Notes: generated by a model from the sequence alone, not told the origin. DNA of 64,000 nucleotides from an uncultured Marinilabiliaceae bacterium (GCA_942492595.1 CALOFK010000003.1:677554-741553); one strand, 5' to 3'. Positions 24,370 through 62,295 are shown, numbered from the stretch's first letter. Numbers and translations: made by a program.

Positions 24370-24430
24370 TATCTTTGTTGATTTAGGAACCAATATAGCA
24401 GAATTATACTAAATCTCCATTTCTCTTTCT

Positions 24431-24480
24431 CTACCTCCCTCACCTCACCCCATCACCCCATCACACCATTACCCAATCAT
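24431..24480. repeat. C/A-rich low-complexity tract with tandem ACCCCATC units (G-tracts on the minus strand)
   Basis: The sequence is CTACCTCCCTCACCTCACCCCATCACCCCATCACACCATTACCCAATCAT. C3-4 runs start at 24437, 24448, 24456 and 24472. Confidence 0.6.
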
Positions 24481-24545: not shown

Positions 24546-24574
24546 TTTCTGTCATTTTGTCCAAACATAATGCT

Positions 24575-24590
24575 TGGCAGAGTATTTGCT
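24575..24590 (+). promoter_or_regulatory. Sigma-54-type -24/-12 promoter element upstream of grpE-dnaJ
   Basis: TGGCAG(24575-80)-AGTAT-TTGCT(24586-90). It matches TGGCAC-N5-TTGCW at 10 of 11 positions with exact spacing. The ATG at 24624 is 34 nt downstream. Confidence 0.55.
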
Positions 24591-26694: not shown

Positions 26695-27615
26695 ATGACA
26701 CTTTTAAGAGCTGATAATGTAAGAAAACAATACAGCAACCACCTGGCTCTTGATGATGTTTCTCTGGCGGTACCTAAGCAGAGTATATATGGACTGCTTG
26801 GTCCGAATGGCGCCGGAAAGACAACCCTCCTGAGAATAATTAACCAGATTACTGCTCCGGATAGTGGAAGTGTATTCCTGGACGGACATCCGCTTTCCTC
26901 TTCAGATCTGATAAATATCGGCTATCTTCCGGAAGAAAGAGGCCTTTATAAGAAAATGAAGGTAGGTGAGCAATCTATTTATCTGGCTATGTTAAAAGGT
27001 CTCTCCAAGAGTGAAGCTATATCAAAGCTGAAGGAGTGGTTTACAAAATTTGAGATAATCGACTGGTGGGACAAGAAAGTTGAAGAATTATCGAAGGGTA
27101 TGCAACAGAAGATACAATTTGTAACGACTGTTTTGCATGAGCCTAAGTTACTTATCTTCGATGAACCCTTCAGTGGATTTGATCCTATAAACGCTAATCT
27201 TCTTAAGAAGGAAATCCTCGACCTGCGTGACAGAGGTGCTACCATAATATTCTCAACCCATAATATGGCATCAGTCGAAGAGCTCTGCGATCATATTACT
27301 CTGATTGATAACTCCAAATCGATACTGGAAGGAAGCGTCGAAACCATCAGAAAAGAATGGGCTGCCAATGAATATATTATAGAGTTTGAAGGGAAAACCG
27401 ATATTCAGATTAATTCTGCTTATGAAATACTCTCTAACGAACAAAAAGAAGGCAAATCAAGCTTACATATAAAAGCTGCAGCAGTAAATAACGAAAATAA
27501 GATTATTGGCGATATGCTTAAAGCAGGTAATATTTTGTCTTTTAATCCTGCCCTACCCTCAATGAACGAGATATTCATAAGGGTTGTCGAGGCAAATGTA
27601 AAACCTTCGAAATAA
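26695..27615 (+). CDS. ABC transporter ATP-binding protein (ABC-2/NatA-like exporter subfamily)
   Basis: It has Walker A GPNGAGKTT, signature LSKGMQQK, Walker B LLIFDEPFSGFD and an H-loop STHNM. Confidence 0.92.
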   Translation: MTLLRADNVRKQYSNHLALDDVSLAVPKQSIYGLLGPNGAGKTTLLRIINQITAPDSGSVFLDGHPLSSSDLINIGYLPEERGLYKKMKVGEQSIYLAMLKGLSKSEAISKLKEWFTKFEIIDWWDKKVEELSKGMQQKIQFVTTVLHEPKLLIFDEPFSGFDPINANLLKKEILDLRDRGATIIFSTHNMASVEELCDHITLIDNSKSILEGSVETIRKEWAANEYIIEFEGKTDIQINSAYEILSNEQKEGKSSLHIKAAAVNNENKIIGDMLKAGNILSFNPALPSMNEIFIRVVEANVKPSK

Positions 27616-27629
27616 TAAAATCAAGTGTT

Positions 27630-28991
27630 ATGTCAAAGACTTCAATAATAATACAAAGAGAATATACCAGCAGGGTTAAGAAGAAATCATTTATTATAAT
27701 GACTATTCTCACTCCCCTGCTTTTTGCAGGATTAATGGTAATACCAGCTCTGATAATGGATAGCGATGATAAAGATTTTAAGAAAATCGCTGTTATAGAA
27801 GATGGTTCTGACCTCTTCACAAATGTTATTCCCAATACGGAATTCATGGAATTCGATTACCTGGGTGATGCTGGAATTGAAAGCCTGAAAGATACTTTTG
27901 AAGAAGCAGGTTATTACGGGATACTTTATATTTCTCCAACAGTCGTAAATGTTCCTAATGCTATCCAGCTTATATCGGCAAAGCAACCTCCCCTTAATGT
28001 TACCGAACATATAGAACGATCGCTTGAAAAATATATCGAAACCGAGAAGATGGCTCAGTACGAAATCGAAAATCTTGACGAGATACTAAAGAGCGTACAA
28101 ACTAATGTTAAGGTTCAGACAATTCGTATTAATGAAAGCGGAGAGACAAAGGAGACTAATACAGGTATAGCTATGGCCCTTGCATATATAGGTGCCTTTA
28201 TGATGTATATGATAGTGATTCTATATGGTGTGCAGGTTATGAGGGGTGTTTTTGAGGAAAAGAATAACCGGATTGTCGAGGTTATAATATCATCTGTTAA
28301 ACCGGTCCAGCTGATGATGGGGAAAATAATCGGTATTGCTCTGGTAGGGCTTACGCAGTTTGCAATCTGGATACTGCTTACCTTTGGAATAGTCTTCGTG
28401 GTAAAAGGACTTATAATACCTGAAAATAATACACAGCTAACAGAGATGGTTTCACAAAACGTGATGCAACAATCTCCTGAAGCGGCAGCTATTCTTGAAA
28501 ATTCAACTACGGGTAACATAAGCGATAACCCTGAGTTTGTAAGGCTGTATAACAATATTATGAATTTCAACTGGCCACTTGTAATTATATCATTTATCTT
28601 CTACTTTATTTTTGGATATTTGCTATATGCCTCAATATTTGCTGCAATAGGGTCTGCCGTTGACTCCGAAACAGATACACAGCAGTTTATGTTTCCTGTT
28701 ATGCTGCCAATAATACTGGGATTATTTATAGCCATGGGAACTATGCAAAATCCCGAAAGTTCACTTTCATTCTGGGGTTCCATGATCCCCTTTACATCAC
28801 CTATCGTGATGATGGCTCGCATACCCTTTGAAGTTCCTATATGGGAAATTGTTCTTTCAATAGCTATTCTTGCAGCAACCTTCTTCGGATTCGTATATCT
28901 TGCAGCTAAAATATACAGAATTGGAATACTGATGTACGGAAAGAAAGTGAGCTATAAGGAAATGATTAAATGGATCAGATATAAAGGATGA
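27630..28991 (+). CDS. ABC-2 type transporter permease (NatB-like, large extracytoplasmic loop after TM1)
   Basis: 453 aa with one N-terminal TM, a ~150-aa loop and then 5 clustered TMs. It lies 14 nt downstream of the ATPase gene. Confidence 0.85.
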   Translation: MSKTSIIIQREYTSRVKKKSFIIMTILTPLLFAGLMVIPALIMDSDDKDFKKIAVIEDGSDLFTNVIPNTEFMEFDYLGDAGIESLKDTFEEAGYYGILYISPTVVNVPNAIQLISAKQPPLNVTEHIERSLEKYIETEKMAQYEIENLDEILKSVQTNVKVQTIRINESGETKETNTGIAMALAYIGAFMMYMIVILYGVQVMRGVFEEKNNRIVEVIISSVKPVQLMMGKIIGIALVGLTQFAIWILLTFGIVFVVKGLIIPENNTQLTEMVSQNVMQQSPEAAAILENSTTGNISDNPEFVRLYNNIMNFNWPLVIISFIFYFIFGYLLYASIFAAIGSAVDSETDTQQFMFPVMLPIILGLFIAMGTMQNPESSLSFWGSMIPFTSPIVMMARIPFEVPIWEIVLSIAILAATFFGFVYLAAKIYRIGILMYGKKVSYKEMIKWIRYKG

Positions 28992-29063: not shown

Positions 29064-30233
29064 ATGGCAAAAGTACTTGTAATAGACGACGAAAAAGCAA
29101 TTAGGAATACTCTGAAAGACGTTCTCGAATATGAGAAACATATAGTAGATCTTGCACAGGATGGCATAGCAGGTCTTGATTTATTTGCTGAAGGTCACTA
29201 TGATGTAGTACTGTGCGATATAAAAATGGATAACATGGATGGAGTCGAAGTACTGGAAAAAATTCAGGAAACCACACATGATATACCTGTAATTATGATC
29301 TCCGGTCATGGAAATATTGATACTGCCGTTGATGCCATTAAAAAGGGAGCCTTCGATTTTCTTGAAAAACCCCTTGACCTTAACAGGCTGCTTATTACCA
29401 TGCGAAATGCAATGGAAAAATCAAACCTGATAAGCGAAACAAAGGTCCTGAAAAAGAAGGTAAGCAAGAAATATGAAATTATTGGGGAATCAGAGCCAAT
29501 TCTGAAAGTCAAAGAGATGATAGACCGTGTCGCACCCACAGAGGCACGAGTACTTATTACAGGTTCAAACGGAACGGGCAAGGAACTTGTTGCCCACCAG
29601 CTCCATGAGAAAAGCAGTCGATCAAAAGCCCCTTTTATAGAGGTTAACTGTGCAGCAATACCAGGTGAGTTAATTGAAAGCGAACTTTTCGGTCATGAAA
29701 AAGGTTCCTTCACCTCAGCACATAAACAGAGAATAGGAAAGTTTGAACAGGCTGACGGAGGGACAATATTCCTCGACGAAATAGGAGATATGAGCCTTTC
29801 AGCCCAGGCAAAGGTGCTTCGCGCGCTCCAGGAAAATAAGATATCCAGGGTGGGCTCAGATAAAGATATACAGGTAAACGTAAGAGTTATTGCAGCCACC
29901 AATAAAGACCTCAGTAAGGAAATTGAGAATAACAGCTTCAGGGAAGACCTTTATCACAGGTTAAGCGTTATACTGATCAATGTACCTGACCTGAAAGACC
30001 GAAAAATCGATATTCCCTTACTCGCAGATCATTTCAACGACATTATATGTTCCGAATATGGTATGACTAAGAAGATTATTACAAAGGATGCTATCAGCGA
30101 ACTTAAGAAAATTGAGTGGACCGGTAATATACGTGAATTCAGAAATGTTCTTGAAAGGCTTATTATCCTCTGCCAGGAAGAAATAAGGGGAAAAGATGTG
30201 CAGGCATTTGCCCATCCGGTATCAAAAAAATAG
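29064..30233 (+). CDS. Sigma-54-dependent enhancer-binding protein: receiver domain + AAA+ domain, no C-terminal HTH
   Basis: It has REC (VLVIDDE..., LCDIKMDNMDG), Walker A GSNGTGKE, the loop ELFGHEKGSFTSA (a GAFTGA variant), Walker B GGTIFLDEIG and sensor II GNIREFRNVLERL. The protein ends 17 aa later at residue 389. Confidence 0.9.
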   Translation: MAKVLVIDDEKAIRNTLKDVLEYEKHIVDLAQDGIAGLDLFAEGHYDVVLCDIKMDNMDGVEVLEKIQETTHDIPVIMISGHGNIDTAVDAIKKGAFDFLEKPLDLNRLLITMRNAMEKSNLISETKVLKKKVSKKYEIIGESEPILKVKEMIDRVAPTEARVLITGSNGTGKELVAHQLHEKSSRSKAPFIEVNCAAIPGELIESELFGHEKGSFTSAHKQRIGKFEQADGGTIFLDEIGDMSLSAQAKVLRALQENKISRVGSDKDIQVNVRVIAATNKDLSKEIENNSFREDLYHRLSVILINVPDLKDRKIDIPLLADHFNDIICSEYGMTKKIITKDAISELKKIEWTGNIREFRNVLERLIILCQEEIRGKDVQAFAHPVSKK

Positions 30234-33251: not shown

Positions 33252-33788
33252 ATGATCGCTAAGGAAAAAAATATTATTGAGAAGTGCCAGGAAGGCGATG
33301 TTAAAGCGCAATTCCTCTTATATAAACAATACTCAAAAGCAATGTACAATATCGCTATCAGATTCCTTAATAATACGATGGATGCCGAAGACATTCTCCA
33401 GGAATCATTTCTATCTGCTTTTGAAAAAATAGATAGCCTGGCAAATACCAATTCATTTGGGTCATGGCTGAAAAGAATAGTAATTAATAATTGCCTGAGC
33501 CTGCTTAGAAAGAAGAAAATATATTATGAAGATATAGATGATTATAAACTTGAAGATGTTGATGAGCACGACTCGTTTGCTGATATTGACCCGGTAGTGG
33601 TACACAGGGAAATCAAAAACCTGCCAGATGGAGGCAGAACAATTCTGGTGTTACATGCTCTTGAAGGGTATAAGCACAGGGAAATTGCAAAAATGATGGG
33701 CATAAGTGAATCGACAAGCAGGACCCAGTATAAAAGAGCTCTTGGAATACTGAATAAAAACGTAAAGGAGAAAGTATATGTCAACTAA
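33252..33788 (+). CDS. RNA polymerase ECF-type sigma-70 factor
   Basis: It has region 2 (AMYNIAIRFLNNTMDAEDILQESFLSAF) and a region 4 HTH (GYKHREIAKMMGISESTSRTQYKRAL). Length is 178 aa. Confidence 0.92.
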   Translation: MIAKEKNIIEKCQEGDVKAQFLLYKQYSKAMYNIAIRFLNNTMDAEDILQESFLSAFEKIDSLANTNSFGSWLKRIVINNCLSLLRKKKIYYEDIDDYKLEDVDEHDSFADIDPVVVHREIKNLPDGGRTILVLHALEGYKHREIAKMMGISESTSRTQYKRALGILNKNVKEKVYVN

Positions 33789-34341
33789 GTTCGAAAAATA
33801 TCTTAAAGAAAACCGTCGTGTTTTCGATGTTGAATATCCCGACGATGAAGCTATCTGGAGAAGGATGGAGGAGAACAGACCGGAACAGAATAGAAGCAAA
33901 AAGGGAAGGTCCATCAGGATAAGCGCAAAATTCCAAAGGATAGCAGCTTCTGTAATAATAGTAATTGCATTATCATATATAGCTATTGACCTCAGTATAG
34001 GGATCTCATTTAATAATAATAACTCCTCCCTCTCGCAGATAAACAGCCAATATGGAGAAATTGAACAGAATTATATGCAAGTGGTAAAGTATAAGAAGGA
34101 AGAAATAAACAACACCAGCATACCTGATAACGATATTATTAGGTCAATACTGGGGGAACTTAAACAACTGGATAAACTCTACAGTGAAACACAGGAAGAT
34201 CTTCAAAAACTTGGCGACAATGAAAGAGTTGTAAATACAATATTTAATATCTACGAGCGAAAGATAGAGCTACTTGAGAGAATAATAGTAGAAACAAATA
34301 AATACGATAATTATGAAAAAAATAATAAATCCGAGATTTAG
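33778..34341 (+). CDS. Putative anti-sigma factor (single-pass membrane protein)
   Basis: It overlaps the sigma gene by 11 nt. It has one TM (IAASVIIVIALSYIAIDL) between a short cytoplasmic N-terminus and a ~110-aa extracytoplasmic part. Confidence 0.65.
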   Translation: MSTKFEKYLKENRRVFDVEYPDDEAIWRRMEENRPEQNRSKKGRSIRISAKFQRIAASVIIVIALSYIAIDLSIGISFNNNNSSLSQINSQYGEIEQNYMQVVKYKKEEINNTSIPDNDIIRSILGELKQLDKLYSETQEDLQKLGDNERVVNTIFNIYERKIELLERIIVETNKYDNYEKNNKSEI

Positions 34342-35626
34342 TCTGTCATTCCTATTCCTGTTATTAATGGCAGGACTGATGGCTCAGACAGGAAGCGATA
34401 TCGAAAAAAGCTATAAATGGTCCTATAAGCTTGGAGCAGAAGGAATACTTACTATAAGTAATTACGACTGCGATCTGGTAATTCATACATGGGACAGTGA
34501 AAAGACCGAACTAAGGATGATAGTAAGCGCTAAAATGAGAAATAGCGAAGATGCTAAAACTCTTGATAGCTATCTTAAAAATCTTGAATTTGATAGTTCT
34601 CCCGGGAAAGTAGTATATAACACCAGGTTCTGGGAATCCCGCGTTAATATTATGGGAAGAAAAACTCTTAAACTTAAAGGAGGGAAAAGTCTTCTTTATA
34701 GAAATATTAAAATTAAAGCTGAGATATGGATGCCCATAAGCGCCAGGCTGGATCTGAATTCTAAATATTCAAATATTGAGCTTGATAAAGCAGAAGGCGA
34801 TTTAAACCTGAACCTTTATAATGACAAGCTATTTTCAGATGATATAAATGGTGATATGGAGATTAGTGCAAAATACTCAAGCCTTGAGTTTAAAAATTGT
34901 AAAAATATTGTTGCAGATCTATACGATTGCGATATCACAACTTTAAAAGCAGGTAAATGCCAGTATAACTCCAAATATTCAAAAATATCTTCAAGCGAGG
35001 TTCAGGATATAACAATTGCTTCATACACCGATAGATTTACTTTTAAGAACTGCGGCAATATAAATATAAACTCTAAATATTCAGACCTTAAAACTACTGT
35101 AGCCGGAAAGGTTATAATAGATAGTTACGAAGGGACATTTGAAATAGATAATTGCCTCAATATGGAAATTACTTCAAAATATACAGACTTTCAAAACAAA
35201 AATGTTAAAGATATACTCGTAAAAGATATATATGAAGGCAGTATTGAATCAGAAAAAATAAACTCGCTAATTATCAATAAATCAAGATATGTAAATTACA
35301 AGCTGGGCATCCTCGATAAATCAATCAGGCTGGACGAAGGCTACGAAGATGATTTCTTTATCGATGAACTGGGCCCCGGTTTTAGTTTATTAGAGCTAAA
35401 TGGCAAATATCTTAAGTGTGAGACAATCTTTAACAATAGTCTGAATCTAAAGTTTTTAGCCAGTATAAAGTACCCCCATCTTGAACTGGAAAATGTAGAC
35501 CTGACTACAAAGACCAAAATTAAGGAATCCTCCAGCCTGGAATACGAAGCATATAAAGGGGAGGTCAGTGATGCTATGCCTCTGATATCCCTTAACGGTT
35601 ATGAGATCAGATTTACCTTTAAATAG
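34313..35626 (+). CDS. Secreted repeat protein, DUF4097-like putative beta-helical adhesin
   Basis: It has signal peptide ...GLMA/QT. Repeats of the type SKYSNIELDK / AKYSSLEFKN / SKYSKISSSE / SKYSDLKTTV / SKYTDFQNKN recur. It overlaps the anti-sigma gene, the typical third gene of such ECF modules. Confidence 0.7.
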   Translation: MKKIINPRFSLSFLFLLLMAGLMAQTGSDIEKSYKWSYKLGAEGILTISNYDCDLVIHTWDSEKTELRMIVSAKMRNSEDAKTLDSYLKNLEFDSSPGKVVYNTRFWESRVNIMGRKTLKLKGGKSLLYRNIKIKAEIWMPISARLDLNSKYSNIELDKAEGDLNLNLYNDKLFSDDINGDMEISAKYSSLEFKNCKNIVADLYDCDITTLKAGKCQYNSKYSKISSSEVQDITIASYTDRFTFKNCGNININSKYSDLKTTVAGKVIIDSYEGTFEIDNCLNMEITSKYTDFQNKNVKDILVKDIYEGSIESEKINSLIINKSRYVNYKLGILDKSIRLDEGYEDDFFIDELGPGFSLLELNGKYLKCETIFNNSLNLKFLASIKYPHLELENVDLTTKTKIKESSSLEYEAYKGEVSDAMPLISLNGYEIRFTFK

Positions 35627-46156: not shown

Positions 46157-46597
46157 TCACAAACTTTTTCTTTTACCTAATAATCTGGAAAATAGCGATC
46201 CTCTCCTGTTCAGTAACCTTTCCGTTTCCTTTTCACGCATCTCGTACAGACTCAGATCCTGCCAAATTTCACTCCATCCCCTAAATCCACCTACATTCTT
46301 ATCGTCGATAAATACATCCGCATTTACCTTCCTGCTTATCGATTCATTATAAACTTCTTCAGGGTAGTTCTTATTTATAGCATAAAACTCAATCCCTTTA
46401 GAGAGGCAATATTCAACTGCCTCATCCAATTCTTTCCCGGCCCTGAAGGTCCATAAGATTAACAGAGCTCCATTCTTCTGAAGTTCCTTCAGGGTCTCAA
46501 AAGCAAATAAAAGATCCTTTCCAATTTCAGGATACTCATGTTCAACAATAGTGCCATCAAAATCGACTGCTATTTTAAGATTCTTAAGGTGCTCCAT
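46157..46597 (-). CDS. Small HAD-like hydrolase-fold protein
   Basis: It has the N-terminal motif KIAVDFDGTIV (DxDGT) and a late FIDDK. It lies 1 nt upstream of the glutaminyl cyclase gene. Confidence 0.6.
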   Translation of the reverse strand: MEHLKNLKIAVDFDGTIVEHEYPEIGKDLLFAFETLKELQKNGALLILWTFRAGKELDEAVEYCLSKGIEFYAINKNYPEEVYNESISRKVNADVFIDDKNVGGFRGWSEIWQDLSLYEMREKETERLLNRRGSLFSRLLGKRKSL

Positions 46598-46692: not shown

Positions 46693-47391
46693 ATGAAAAA
46701 GCATATTCCTAACCTTCTGACCTTATTAAATCTGGCATCCGGATTTATTGCTATAATATTTATTACAAGAGGTGAAGTGTTAATAGCTGCATGGATACTT
46801 GGCGTTGCTCTGGTATTTGATTTTATGGATGGACTGGCTGCCAGGTTTTTGAATGCAGGGTCTGAACTTGGAGTACAACTCGACAGCCTTGCAGATCTTG
46901 TTAGTTTTGGTGTTGCTCCCGGACTGATGATGCATCATCTTATACTTACAGGAAATGGCGCCGAAGAGTTTAAAAACTATCTTATCTGGCTTCCTATTAT
47001 TATACCCGTTTTATCAGGACTGAGACTGGCTATTTTTAATCTAGATGATTCACAGACAGATTCTTTCAGAGGATTGCCAACACCTGCAAATGCTATCTTT
47101 ATTATTGGACTGATTATAACAAGTGAATTGTCAGAAAGCCAGATTATAGAAACTCTTTACTCATCTAGATGGGTGCTCAGTTTCTTTACTCTCTGTTTTT
47201 CTGTTCTAATGGTTACCAGGATCCCGATGTTTTCACTGAAGGTAAAGCACCTCAGGTTTAAAGGAAATGAATTAAGGTTTATTTTCATCCTTTTAACTAT
47301 AATGCTTGCAGCCGGGACAGGTATTGATTCTATACCCCTGATAATTATTCTCTACGTTACCGTATCAATCAGTCACGGCCTTATCAGCTGA
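46693..47391 (+). CDS. pssA: CDP-diacylglycerol--serine O-phosphatidyltransferase (CDP-alcohol phosphatidyltransferase family)
   Basis: It has the motif DFMDGLAARFLNAGSELGVQLDSLADLVSFGVAP (D-G-x2-A-R-x8-G-x3-D-x3-D) and multiple TMs. Confidence 0.88.
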   Translation: MKKHIPNLLTLLNLASGFIAIIFITRGEVLIAAWILGVALVFDFMDGLAARFLNAGSELGVQLDSLADLVSFGVAPGLMMHHLILTGNGAEEFKNYLIWLPIIIPVLSGLRLAIFNLDDSQTDSFRGLPTPANAIFIIGLIITSELSESQIIETLYSSRWVLSFFTLCFSVLMVTRIPMFSLKVKHLRFKGNELRFIFILLTIMLAAGTGIDSIPLIIILYVTVSISHGLIS

Positions 47392-48489
47392 GCCGTTTGC
47401 AGCCTTCTTCTTTGTAATCATTACTTCCGTCTGTCTCCTTATTGATTCCTGGTGTAGATGCTTAAGCAGCTGTTCCATAAACCTTGTATCCAGATCTACT
47501 CTATTTCCATGCTCAGTTCTTGTTTTAAGTATCTCAAGCCACCTGTCCATCTGCAAAACCGATACATTATTACTGAACTTATACTCGGCTATCCTTTCTA
47601 TTATCTTCATCCTCTCACTTAATAGCTCAACAAACTGGTGATCGATTGAATCGACCTGGTTCCTGAGCTCTTCAAGGTCATCCAGAAATCCCGGGTCGTC
47701 GAACCGGGGCTTTCTTATTACCAGCCTTTCGATAAGCTCATTATATTGGATGGGAGTAATCTGCTGATTACAATCGCTTAATGCGCTGGATGGATCGGAA
47801 TGCACCTCTACCATCAAACCATCCATATTAAGGTCCATTGCCTTCTGCGACACTTCATATACCAATGATGAATCACCACTTATATGACTGGGGTCGCATA
47901 GTAGTGGAATATTATTTATCCGTCTTCTCAATTCAATGGGTATCTCCCACTTGGGCATATTCCTGTAGAGGGTGCGTTCAAAAGGTGAAAATCCGCGATG
48001 TATCGCCGCGATCTTACTTATTCCGGCACCATAGATCCTTTCAATTGCTCCAATCCATAAATCAATATCAGGATTAAGAGGGTTCTTAATAAATATAGGC
48101 ATATCAACACCCTGTAGCGACCTTGCAATCTCATCTACTGAAAAAGGATTTGAGACAGTCCTTGCCCCTATCCATAATATATCAATACCTGCCTCAATAC
48201 ACTGCTCCACATGCTTGGCCGAAGCCGCTTCAACAGCAATACGGAAACCAAATTCCTGCTTCACATTAGCCAGCCACTTCAATCCTTTCTGGCCCACTCC
48301 GCTGAATGATCCGGGACGCGTCCGTGGCTTCCATATACCCGCTCTAAATACCGCCGGCGATATCCCTGCACTTAGTGCAGAGGCAATCTCCATAAGCTGC
48401 TTTTCAGACTCAGCACTACAGGGTCCGGCAATAAAAAACGGACCCCTGTTAAAGTTATCAAACCAATTTTCTATAGGAACAATATTCAT
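47365..48489 (-). CDS. Bifunctional 3-deoxy-7-phosphoheptulonate (DAHP) synthase / chorismate mutase
   Basis: The N-terminal ~270 aa are type I-beta DAHPS/KDO8PS-like (IAGPCSAES...PRT...FRG...CDPSH). The C-terminal ~90 aa are AroQ chorismate mutase-like (IDHQFVELLSERMKIIERIAEYK). Confidence 0.88.
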   Translation of the reverse strand: MNIVPIENWFDNFNRGPFFIAGPCSAESEKQLMEIASALSAGISPAVFRAGIWKPRTRPGSFSGVGQKGLKWLANVKQEFGFRIAVEAASAKHVEQCIEAGIDILWIGARTVSNPFSVDEIARSLQGVDMPIFIKNPLNPDIDLWIGAIERIYGAGISKIAAIHRGFSPFERTLYRNMPKWEIPIELRRRINNIPLLCDPSHISGDSSLVYEVSQKAMDLNMDGLMVEVHSDPSSALSDCNQQITPIQYNELIERLVIRKPRFDDPGFLDDLEELRNQVDSIDHQFVELLSERMKIIERIAEYKFSNNVSVLQMDRWLEILKTRTEHGNRVDLDTRFMEQLLKHLHQESIRRQTEVMITKKKAANGSADKAVTD

Positions 48490-48699
48490 ACCGCGAACTT
48501 CGTGCTTAACTGTATAATTTGATAATATAATTTCAGATTGGAATAAGGCGAACTAAATATAAGAATAATCTACCAGATCGCAGGCGACAAAAACAAAGAA
48601 GTAAACACTGCAAAATGCATAATCCTAATGCCAAATTTGCACCTTGCCGAACAACAACATGTCGTTTTGTCAGTCTTTGACTCGACAACACTGCCATTA

Positions 48700-48715
48700 T
48701 GGCACCTTTGCTGCC
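48700..48715 (+). promoter_or_regulatory. Sigma-54-type -24/-12 element upstream of hsp20
   Basis: TGGCAC(48700-05)-CTTTG-CTGCC(48711-15). The -24 box is perfect and the -12 box retains TGC. The ATG at 48783 is 68 nt downstream. Confidence 0.4.
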
Positions 48716-48782
48716 CTGGTATACATATTGATATTAATAGTTTATAAAACAATAATAATTAATTAATAAGGAGGATAAAGTT

Positions 48783-49199
48783 ATGTTACCAATTAGAAGA
48801 ACTTACAAACCGATGTATATGTCGAACTTTTTTGACAATGATCTTGATACATTTTTCAAACCGGCAAGCACATTTAAGCCAGCAGTAAATGTAAGGGAAG
48901 ATGATAAAGCTTATAATATTGAACTGGCACTTCCTGGTATGTCGAAAGAAGATATTAAGATTGAGATAGAAAAGAATACTCTTATGATATCTTCTGAAAA
49001 AAATGAAAGCAAGGAAGAAGTTAGCGACTCTTATAACCTTAGGGAATTTGGCTACCAGTCATTTTGCAGAAACTTTACAATTCCGGAAAATGCAGATGCC
49101 GAGAAAATAAGTGCATCATACAAAGACGGAATACTGAATGTTGGGATTCCAAAGTCTCAAAAGGACACAAAAGTAAACAGACATATAAAGATATCGTAG
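48783..49199 (+). CDS. Hsp20/alpha-crystallin family small heat-shock protein
   Basis: It has the alpha-crystallin domain PAVNVREDDKAYNIELALPGMSKEDIKIEIEKNTLMIS...F.R.F.LP...I.A.Y.DGIL.V..PK. AAGGAGG lies 8 nt upstream of the ATG. Confidence 0.92.
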   Translation: MLPIRRTYKPMYMSNFFDNDLDTFFKPASTFKPAVNVREDDKAYNIELALPGMSKEDIKIEIEKNTLMISSEKNESKEEVSDSYNLREFGYQSFCRNFTIPENADAEKISASYKDGILNVGIPKSQKDTKVNRHIKIS

Positions 49200-49235: not shown

Positions 49236-49261
49236 CCAGCAGGAAACTGCTGGTTTTTTTA
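49236..49261. terminator. Bidirectional terminator between hsp20 and the flavodiiron gene
   Basis: CCAGCAG-GAAA-CTGCTGG (49236-49253) followed by TTTTTTTT. The T-run overlaps the stop codon of the convergent gene. Confidence 0.8.
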
Positions 49262-54545: not shown

Positions 54546-54561
54546 TACAATTACAGTGCCA
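54546..54561 (-). promoter_or_regulatory. Sigma-54-like -24/-12 element upstream of rsfS-ftsH operon (imperfect -12)
   Basis: The minus strand reads TGGCAC-TGTAA-TTGTA. The -24 box is perfect, but the -12 box has GT instead of the conserved GC. It is 85 nt upstream of the rsfS ATG at 54461. Confidence 0.3.
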
Positions 54562-54626: not shown

Positions 54627-55379
54627 ATGATAATAGGGAATAAAACAATATATCATGCTAATGTGTCATCTACAAATGATGTTGCAGCAGAATTAATTAG
54701 TAAGGGCAGAGCTTATGAAGGGATGGTAATTTCTGCCGGTTTTCAGTCGAAGGGAAAGGGTCAGCGTAATAACATATGGGACAGCGAGCCTTTTATGAAT
54801 CTGATTATGAGCGTAATACTTATGCCGGAAAGCATTCTGCCCGAACAGCAGTTTTATATATCAAAGATAGTTTCGCTGGCGATTACAGATGCATTGGAAA
54901 GCTTCTCAGACCAATTCTCAATAAAATGGCCTAATGACATCTACCATGGAAGTGACAAAATAGCAGGTATTTTAATTGAGAATATCATTATCGGAGAAAA
55001 AATTGCGGCCAGCATTGTTGGTGTAGGATTAAATATTAATCAGGAAAATTTTCCTGAAAACATTCCTAATCCGGTCTCACTAACACAGATTACCAAAAAT
55101 AAACACAATGTGCAGGTAATTCTTGATGAAATTTGCAATAAGCTTAATAGCAGGTATGTTTCTCTTAAAGACGGCGACTATTCAGGAATAGATAGTTCAT
55201 ATGAAAGCAGGCTATATCACAGAAATGATGAGTTAGGCTTTATAACAAACGAAGGGCCCTTAAAGGGAAAAATTAAAGGTGTGAATAAACTTGGCCAACT
55301 TATTATTGAGCTGCCAGAAGGAGAAAGCAGAGAATTCTCATTCAAAGAAATAGAGTTTTTAAATACTACCAGGCTGTAA
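54627..55379 (+). CDS. birA: Biotin--[acetyl-CoA-carboxylase] ligase (group I, no N-terminal HTH)
   Basis: 250 aa with the biotin-binding loop FQSKGKGQRNNIWDS (GRGRxGRxW-type) and KWPNDI...KIAGILIE. Confidence 0.88.
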   Translation: MIIGNKTIYHANVSSTNDVAAELISKGRAYEGMVISAGFQSKGKGQRNNIWDSEPFMNLIMSVILMPESILPEQQFYISKIVSLAITDALESFSDQFSIKWPNDIYHGSDKIAGILIENIIIGEKIAASIVGVGLNINQENFPENIPNPVSLTQITKNKHNVQVILDEICNKLNSRYVSLKDGDYSGIDSSYESRLYHRNDELGFITNEGPLKGKIKGVNKLGQLIIELPEGESREFSFKEIEFLNTTRL

Positions 55380-62222: not shown

Positions 62223-62295
62223 ACGATCTGATCTAATATGCCAAAATTACATATAGTTTTACAAAAACCATTCATTTATCTAACACACTGATTAA

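Follow-up and report, generated by a model that had tools for sequence, protein, structure and literature searches.

In Flavobacterium psychrophilum, 5'-end RNA sequencing placed a -24/-12 motif (SM4) at the promoters of groES-EL, lon, dnaK, grpE-dnaJ, htpG, clpB and skp (Guerin et al. 2021, PMC9723704). Chaperone and protease genes fall there into the co-expression clusters B254 and B415, with ftsH co-expressed, and the genome encodes one sigma-54 and three enhancer-binding proteins. In addition, a survey found sigma-54 matches to be enriched before GroEL, IbpA (COG0071), GroES, GrpE, DnaJ, DnaK, Lon and ClpB in Bacteroidota and Planctomycetota (PLoS One 2025, PMC12316311). A sigma-54 regulon of chaperones and proteases is thus real for the Bacteroidota and already published (PMC9723704, PMC12316311). 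Here we analyzed the promoter of hsp20, a small heat-shock protein gene carried by 64,000 nucleotides of DNA (the window) from an uncultured Marinilabiliaceae bacterium (GCA_942492595.1 CALOFK010000003.1:677554-741553). A preliminary description of this DNA had proposed that sigma-54 reads hsp20 from the motif TGGCAC-N5-CTGCC at 48700-48715, and that hsp20 is part of a regulon to which grpE, lon and ftsH also belong. Our analysis supports both the regulon and a promoter of this kind, but the element appears to lie 17 bp further downstream, and a nearby palindrome pointed out in that description is not conserved.

A sigma-54 site before a small heat-shock gene of Bacteroidota had already been predicted (IbpA/COG0071, PMC12316311) and, since the regulon itself is published, the hsp20 promoter adds a member to it and not a principle. 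That survey was matrix based and conducted at the level of gene families, and gives no exact site positions, single-site conservation or upstream boxes; no hsp20 gene is named in the F. psychrophilum data set (PMC9723704). Outside the phylum, E. coli ibpB has a sigma-54 promoter, as the preliminary description correctly stated, with the site TGGTAAATGGTTTGC (Kuczynska-Wisnik 2001, as cited and confirmed by chromatin immunoprecipitation in PMC2831329). Both ibpB and the hsp20 studied here are small heat-shock genes with a TGGTA-type -24 element, a likeness in how the promoter works, with nothing pointing to common descent. In E. coli, the ibpB sigma-54 promoter is secondary, beside sigma-32, and dnaK is explicitly not sigma-54 dependent (PMC2831329), unlike in Bacteroidota, where the whole chaperone set appears to be sigma-54 driven.

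The hsp20 upstream region comprises the following features, where mean identity is to the window sequence in 10 orthologues, "box" refers to the pattern TGNCA-N3-TGNCA, and boxes and palindrome carry no strand.

48629-48641: third and weaker box (box 1) TGCCAAATTTGCA, 31 bp ahead of box 2; 9.7 bits; mean identity 7.0/10
48642-48659: gap between box 1 and box 2; mean identity 3.2/10, unconstrained
48660-48672: distal box (box 2) TGTCGTTTTGTCA, starting 32 bp before the start of box 3; 14.6 bits; mean identity 7.5/10, TG.C....TG.CA in 9-10/10
48667-48688: near-palindrome TTGTC-AGTC-TTT-GACT-C-GACAA, not conserved; shares no more than its left arm, TTGTCA, with box 2
48673-48688: remainder of the near-palindrome; mean identity 3.6/10, unconstrained
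48692-48704: proximal box (box 3) TGCCATTATGGCA, TGCCA-TTA-TGGCA, a perfect 5-3-5 palindrome ending 12 bp before the promoter TGG; mean identity 8.3/10, TG.CA...TG.CA in 8-10/10
48700-48715, plus strand: TGGCAC-N5-CTGCC, which resembles a sigma-54 site but combines the right half of box 3 with a chance CTGC
48705-48716: 12-nt spacer, which holds the -12 element of that motif; mean identity 3.5/10
48717-48731, plus strand: conserved candidate sigma-54 promoter TGGTATACATATTGA (TGGTAT-ACATA-TTGA), GG at 48718-48719 and TTGA at 48728-48731
48744-48782, plus strand: predicted 5' untranslated region of about 39 nt, A/T-rich and unstructured; assumed to begin 13 nt past the A of TTGA
48783-49199, plus strand: hsp20, alpha-crystallin-type small heat-shock protein of 138 aa; Pfam HSP20, E = 2e-26

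The orthologues (L001, L002 and L061-L068) are syntenic and encode proteins 61-88% identical to that of the window; a convergent flavodoxin/ODP gene stands beside hsp20 in 10/10, and a divergent DAHP-synthase/chorismate-mutase gene is kept in 8/10. Their intergenic regions were aligned with that of the window, giving 11 loci. The closest hsp20 and grpE relatives come from metagenome-assembled genomes annotated as Bacteroidales, Marinilabiliaceae or Rikenellaceae. A metagenome scan yielded mostly distant hsp20 genes (at most 50% identity), many of them from other phyla and without such elements.

The best conserved segment of the alignment is TGGTATACATATTGA, with a mean identity of 8.4/10. It is retained at the same position in all 10 orthologous promoters, each of which keeps both GG and TTGA, and ATTGA is invariant across the 11 loci. 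GG and the -13 G stand at the 10-bp spacing of sigma-54, and the -12 C is replaced by A. Distant hsp20 loci carry equivalent TGG[T/C/A]A[T/C]-N5-TTG elements, of which only the TGG and TTG parts are kept (TGGTATTGTATTTGT, TGGTACTGAATTTGT, TGGTACAGGGATTGC, TGGAACAGCATTTGA, TGGCACAGTATTTGT, AGGCAAACATTTTGT and others). Altogether, TGG[ACT]AN-N5-TTG was found in 30 of 53 non-redundant hsp20/grpE upstream regions, compared to 0.34 in shuffles (maximum, 3 in 500 shuffles). The hsp20 gene very probably has a sigma-54-type promoter, as in the stress regulon described for the phylum.

The boxes upstream of this element are conserved in turn. Box 2 begins with TGTCG in the window and with TG.CA in 10/10 orthologues, box 1 is recognizable in 7/10, and the middle base of the half-sites varies among the orthologues (G, T or A). 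With a box matrix built from orthologue boxes only, box 3 of the window reaches the maximum (21.3 bits), followed by a site before grpE at 24550-24562 (16.5 bits) and by box 2. The pattern occurs in 26 of the 53 upstream regions, compared to 0.59 in shuffles, and in all 19 non-redundant regions with both patterns detected the distance from the end of the box to TGG is 12 or 13 bp. A phasing of 32 bp between boxes is found in 10 of the 11 syntenic loci, and one of 41 bp in the group L032/L033/L038. In 293 kb of collected sequence, searched on both strands, the composite of box, spacer and promoter lies only before hsp20 and grpE. In four metagenomic loci of 40-50% GC (L023, L024, L026 and L027), hsp20 is preceded by the boxes GCCATATTGGC and GCCATTATGGC, 42 bp apart, and then by a conserved CGGCACATTTTTTCAGG, which has the -24 half of a sigma-54 site but TTCA in place of the expected TTGC; this arrangement may be a variant of the hsp20 module.

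The same layout is found in F. psychrophilum, a member of the Flavobacteriia in which transcription start sites are mapped; the window is Bacteroidales/Marinilabiliales-like and known here from its sequence alone. The mapped clpB promoter reads ACATTTTGTCC-12 nt-TGGAATAACAATTGA and the groES promoter AAATGTCA-12 nt-TGGCATAATTTCTGA, and the lon promoter has a box-like half-site, ATATGCCA-15 nt-TGGCACAATCCTTGA; nine non-chaperone sigma-54 promoters have no box in the sequences given (PMC9723704). Alike in the two organisms are thus the -24 element (TGGAAT or TGGTAT), the -12 TTGA and a TGNCA-type box 12 nt before TGG (clpB and groES). TTGA also stands at -12 in the mapped promoters of lon, skp and a lipoprotein gene, and the mapped set includes TGGAAT-N5-TTGA (clpB) and TGGTAT-N5-TAGC (PMC9723704). 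A TGGTA-type -24 is accepted by sigma-54, as seen from E. coli ibpB and from F. psychrophilum THC0290_0297 (TGGTATAATTTTAGC, PMC9723704). We used a box 12-13 nt before TGG, together with a cytoplasmic chaperone or protease as the gene product, to define the regulon, the layout being an operational definition of this analysis and not a published one. The layout is common to hsp20, whose product has the HSP20 domain, to grpE of the window and of three further loci (L070-L072), and to F. psychrophilum clpB and groES; conservation and spacing are observed directly in these comparisons, and so is a module common to several operons and to two classes of the phylum.

We consider it likely that sigma-54 holoenzyme binds hsp20 at 48717-48731 and starts near 48744, and that a regulator on two or three boxes controls open-complex formation. 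In this mechanism, RNA polymerase with sigma-54 would transcribe hsp20 from TGGTATACATATTGA, and the mRNA would begin with about 39 nt of leader carrying a strong Shine-Dalgarno sequence. A dimeric DNA-binding regulator on box 3, box 2 and perhaps box 1 would set the activity; spaced at about three helical turns, the boxes all face the same side of the DNA. Most simply, the regulator would be the enhancer-binding ATPase of a protein-quality-control regulon, adjacent dimers of which would assemble into the ring that remodels the closed complex, and three dimer sites at three-turn intervals would suit the need of a hexameric ATPase. At E. coli glnAp2, the activator oligomer nucleates on NtrC dimer sites spaced by three helical turns (32 bp), and additional low-affinity sites reach close to the promoter; the main NtrC sites are found more than 100 bp upstream, and their position can be changed. 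The hsp20 boxes share the 32-bp phasing with these sites. At hsp20, however, a constant 12-13 bp separates the proximal box from the -24 element, and box and NtrC site are unrelated in sequence.

The first alternative is that sigma-54 uses the motif initially described, TGGCAC-N5-CTGC at 48700-48714, with a start at about 48726 and the TTGTC...GACAA palindrome as activator site, or that this motif and TGGTATACATATTGA are tandem promoters. The motif is present as described, with TGGCAC at 48700-48705, CTTTG at 48706-48710 and CTGCC at 48711-48715 on the plus strand, and it ends 68 nt before the ATG (48783 - 48715 = 68); the near-palindrome is likewise found at 48667-48688. The motif is intergenic and correctly oriented, beginning 83 nt before the ATG, and it matches the canonical consensus better than TGGTATACATATTGA does, with one mismatch to TGGCAC-N5-TTGC (TGGCAC-CTTTG-CTGC) and a GG-to-GC spacing of 10 bp. 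With a matrix built from 12 F. psychrophilum sigma-54 promoters with mapped starts, it scores 10.7 bits (rank 12 of the 127,970 window positions scanned). TGGCAC-N6-TGC occurs only before hsp20 and before lon in the window (2 compared to 0.20 expected from shuffles), and TGGCAC-N5-TTGC with at most one mismatch has 8 matches (2.5 expected), among them sites before grpE-dnaJ and rsfS-ftsH. The motif is therefore real and non-random in its context, its TGGCA being explained by box TGCCATTATGGCA, of which it is the right half.

What argues against its use as a promoter is the alignment. Its -12 CTGC falls in the variable spacer, where the four bases are identical to the window in 4, 8, 3 and 1 of the 10 orthologues, and none of them (0/10) has a -12 element in this register. 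The -24 GG is complete in only 2/10, because its second G, kept in these two, is the free N of the TGNCA half-site. Even the closest relative, with an 88% identical protein (L061), reads TGTCAGTATCACTGG (TGTCAG-TATCA-CTGG) at this stretch. The palindrome, whose conservation the preliminary description had proposed to check by phylogenetic footprinting, is not kept, the part outside box 2 being as variable as the neutral spacer. Moreover, a holoenzyme bound at the motif would sit on top of box 3, which is conserved. A second accidental match, TGGCATCTTTATTG, which overlaps the distal box of L062 (about 351-364), shows that a box with a TGGCA half-site can look like a -24 element by chance. Judged from this comparison, the 15-mer at 48700-48714 is not under selection as a promoter and is probably not the hsp20 promoter. 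It would rather be a by-product of the box, TGGCA being an allowed half-site and CTGC having arisen by chance in the neutral spacer, and we regard its use by sigma-54, alone or in tandem, as unlikely.

According to a second and slightly less probable alternative, a housekeeping sigma factor reads hsp20 from the A/T-rich DNA, for example from TTGATA-17-AATAAT at 48728-48756, and the boxes and the 15-mer TGGTATACATATTGA are the operator of a heat-shock repressor or of a class I/II activator, with no part for sigma-54. In a sigma-70-type scan, TTGATA-17 nt-AATAAT matches 10 of 12 positions, the block AATAATAAT is conserved in the orthologues, and the 15-mer is conserved over its full length, as an operator would be. 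However, sigma-70-type matches are as frequent as expected from shuffles (3 compared to 2.9), and the distance from TTGA to AATAAT varies from 19 to 25 nt among the orthologues; we therefore rejected this E. coli-type promoter. In Bacteroidota, sigma-A promoters have TAnnTTTG at -7, with or without TTTG at -33 (supplement of PMC9723704), and TAnnTTTG is found in none of the 11 loci within 290 nt upstream of hsp20, by which a promoter of this kind was rejected as well. Furthermore, what distant hsp20 loci retain is TGG and TTG at sigma-54 spacing, and mapped F. psychrophilum starts behind the same layout were assigned to sigma-54 (PMC9723704).

A neighboring gene provides a third alternative.

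47365-48489, minus strand: divergent DAHP-synthase/chorismate-mutase (aroG/pheA-like) gene, sharing a 293-bp intergenic region with hsp20

That the boxes belong to this gene and are unrelated to hsp20, as their place in the shared region and the position of box 1 nearest that gene might suggest, is very improbable, since boxes lie at the same 12-13 bp distance before grpE of the window and three grpE orthologues, before hsp20 in L065 (which has another upstream neighbor) and in the distant L004 and L032, and before F. psychrophilum clpB and groES. Box 1 by itself could serve the divergent gene instead.

Returning to sigma-54 at TGGTATACATATTGA, we compared hsp20 with the other sigma-54-type sites of the window.

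24550-24589, plus strand: grpE-dnaJ promoter, box TGTCATTTTGTCC at 24550-24562 (16.5 bits), 12 nt, then TGGCAGAGTATTTGC at 24575-24589
54547-54561, minus strand: rsfS-ftsH sigma-54-like site TGGCACTGTAATTGT, 100 nt upstream of rsfS-ftsH; 11.9 bits, rank 5
62311-62297, minus strand: lon promoter TGGCACAACAATTGC, perfect consensus, 89 nt before lon; 15.9 bits, rank 2
62368-62356, minus strand: box-like GGTCATATTGTCC before lon, 44 nt (12 + 32) upstream of TGG; 9.0 bits

A relaxed sigma-54 pattern has 25 matches in the window, where the coding fraction is 0.93, and only 5 of them are intergenic. All five lie 46-100 nt upstream of grpE-dnaJ, hsp20 (two matches), rsfS-ftsH or lon, the nearest being that of grpE-dnaJ (46 nt), and no chaperone or protease was found among the other large annotated open reading frames (ORFs) of the window. 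As all the intergenic matches precede these four operons, the idea of a regulon is justified, in agreement with the preliminary description and with what is published for the phylum. The grpE layout is conserved in L070-L072 with TTGA at -12, and the grpE orthologues of this lineage read TGGCAGAGTATTTGA. The module proposed for hsp20 would also drive grpE-dnaJ, and the box of lon would stand one phase further upstream.

Between the lon promoter and its ATG, downstream of the predicted start, lies a further box-like sequence, TGTAATTTTGGCA (62239-62251, minus strand, 14.2 bits), which could be a chance match or a negative operator on lon. Likewise, about 370-400 bp upstream of the rsfS-ftsH site, inside a biotin-ligase-like ORF, the box-like sites TGCTATTTTGTCA (14.5 bits) and TGTCATTAGGCCA (11.5 bits) occur with a spacing of 26 bp at 54927-54965 on the minus strand and may represent a remote enhancer or chance matches.

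The window also encodes a component of the sigma-54 machinery.

29064-30233, plus strand: sigma-54 enhancer-binding protein of 389 aa; Pfam Sigma54_activat, E = 2e-71

Its gene follows grpE-dnaJ at a distance of 2.5 kb, with an ABC-2 transporter pair (26695-28991) in between. A search of the window for the canonical GAFTGA motif returned nothing, and the gene was found with the broader motif ESELFG; the protein has GSFTSA in place of GAFTGA. It consists of a receiver, an AAA+ domain and a lid, has no C-terminal helix-turn-helix or other DNA-binding domain, and its alignment to the NtrC and NtrX models breaks off at about position 375 of about 455. It stays below the curated cut-off of every named NCBIfam equivalog and hence cannot be placed in NtrC, NtrX, FlgR or another named family. 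Enhancer-binding proteins without a DNA-binding domain include FlgR of Helicobacter and Campylobacter and CtcC of Chlamydia. The window protein resembles these in ending after receiver, AAA+ and lid, and the NCBIfam FlgR model is among its matches. Its presence indicates that the genome runs sigma-54 transcription and counts among the points in favor of the proposed mechanism.

Several observations weigh against the mechanism that we favor. TGGTATACATATTGA scores 8.8 bits (rank 28), below the 10.7 bits of the motif at 48700-48714, and departs from the consensus at -23, -21 and -12. Because of these scores, sequence matching alone does not choose between the two sites, and the choice in favor of TGGTATACATATTGA is made here by conservation and architecture. 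The 15-mer is also conserved through its spacer, beyond the contacts of sigma-54, and another constraint may be present. Moreover, the rsfS-ftsH site has no adjacent box, and the six-frame translation of the window contains no RpoN-box motif, so that rpoN must lie elsewhere. The protein encoded at 29064-30233, the only enhancer-binding protein of the window, cannot bind the boxes, since it has no DNA-binding domain, and was excluded as the box binder. The proximal box is centered at about -45, much nearer to the start than is usual for an enhancer; in view of this and of the fixed 12-13 bp, the box protein could be a repressor or an adaptor. Finally, the start site and the RpoN dependence of hsp20, the box-binding protein itself and its activating or repressing role are what we infer from the comparisons above.

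As far as our literature searches reach, the box architecture is undescribed: they returned no description of proteotoxic-stress sensing in Bacteroidota, of a heat-shock or chaperone-promoter enhancer-binding protein, or of a box motif, and the upstream box is not mentioned in the searched parts of PMC9723704 and its supplements. A two-component system of Riemerella, deletion of which lowers dnaK, dnaJ and grpE, was considered as heat-shock regulator and rejected; its regulator is of the OmpR type, and its effect is therefore probably indirect. We tentatively suggest, as a serious possibility, that the boxes are the undescribed operator of a Bacteroidota heat-shock regulator, with a phasing of about 32 bp and a constant 12-13 bp to the -24 element downstream, specific to the sigma-54 promoters of chaperones and proteases, and conserved from Bacteroidia to Flavobacteriia. 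If so, given this close and fixed geometry, the regulator would touch the sigma-54 closed complex directly and not via a DNA loop. Candidates are an enhancer-binding protein that itself has a DNA-binding domain, or a separate DNA-binding partner or repressor acting with an ATPase that has none, like that encoded at 29064-30233.

The box architecture, a by-product of this analysis, is its more interesting part and the one worth following. Given its sharp definition and fixed position, the 13-bp box common to hsp20, grpE, clpB and groES across two classes can be used as bait for DNA-affinity purification and for regulon prediction, and would make the question of stress sensing directly testable. 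On the other hand, a regulator box with a TGGCA half-site makes convincing but false -24 elements in these genomes, so that sigma-54 predictions for Bacteroidota made from a matrix alone will put promoters in the wrong place or count too many of them.

Downstream of the promoter, a start of hsp20 near 48744 is suggested by analogy with the -50 to +10 sequences of F. psychrophilum clpB and groES (PMC9723704). The Shine-Dalgarno sequence GGAGGA stands at 48770-48775, 7 nt before the ATG, and is present in 10 of the 11 syntenic loci (L064 has GGAGAA); it was also noticed in several distant Bacteroidota hsp20 loci (L016, L017, L025 and L040). To our knowledge, Bacteroidota mRNAs generally do not have Shine-Dalgarno sequences, and the strong one of hsp20 may mark special translational control under stress. 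An RNA thermometer of the ROSE or fourU type in the leader was considered and rejected: the minimum free energy is -8.5 kcal/mol (z = +0.81), and no conserved hairpin sequesters the Shine-Dalgarno sequence. The consensus structure reaches only -1.1 kcal/mol with no covarying pair, and no Rfam match was found in the leader. At the other end of the gene, one further feature was detected.

49236-49260, plus strand: intrinsic terminator, stem CCAGCAG-GAAA-CTGCTGG followed by T7; bidirectional and common to the convergent gene

Since this terminator is shared with the convergent gene, hsp20 is monocistronic.

Additional observations concern the remainder of the window and the published record. PMC12316311 credits sigma-54-dependent grpE/groES in B. 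thetaiotaomicron and F. psychrophilum to a Blattabacterium genome paper (its reference 80), which looks mis-cited; the F. psychrophilum part is supported by PMC9723704. The best match of the window to the sigma-54 matrix, TGGCACTATTGTTGAA (46541-46556, minus strand, 16.2 bits), falls inside the gene of a HAD-like hydrolase, where it codes for the DGTIVE portion of the DxD motif. We regard it as probably fortuitous or non-productive, similar to intragenic sites reported for E. coli (PMC4591121). An extracytoplasmic function-type sigma factor gene at 33252-33788 (plus strand) is followed by two ORFs without a Pfam match (33778-34341 and 34313-35626), which possibly form an anti-sigma module. The window also encodes a CHU_C domain of the type IX secretion system and a TonB receptor with a CarboxypepD_reg domain, a gene content indicative of Bacteroidota. 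Finally, a C-rich direct repeat, CCTCACCTCACCCCATCACCCCATCACACCATTACCC, lies upstream of the grpE promoter at 24430-24475, where the grpE orthologues L070 and L071 have another repeat, a CT-rich one (CTCTTTGC...).

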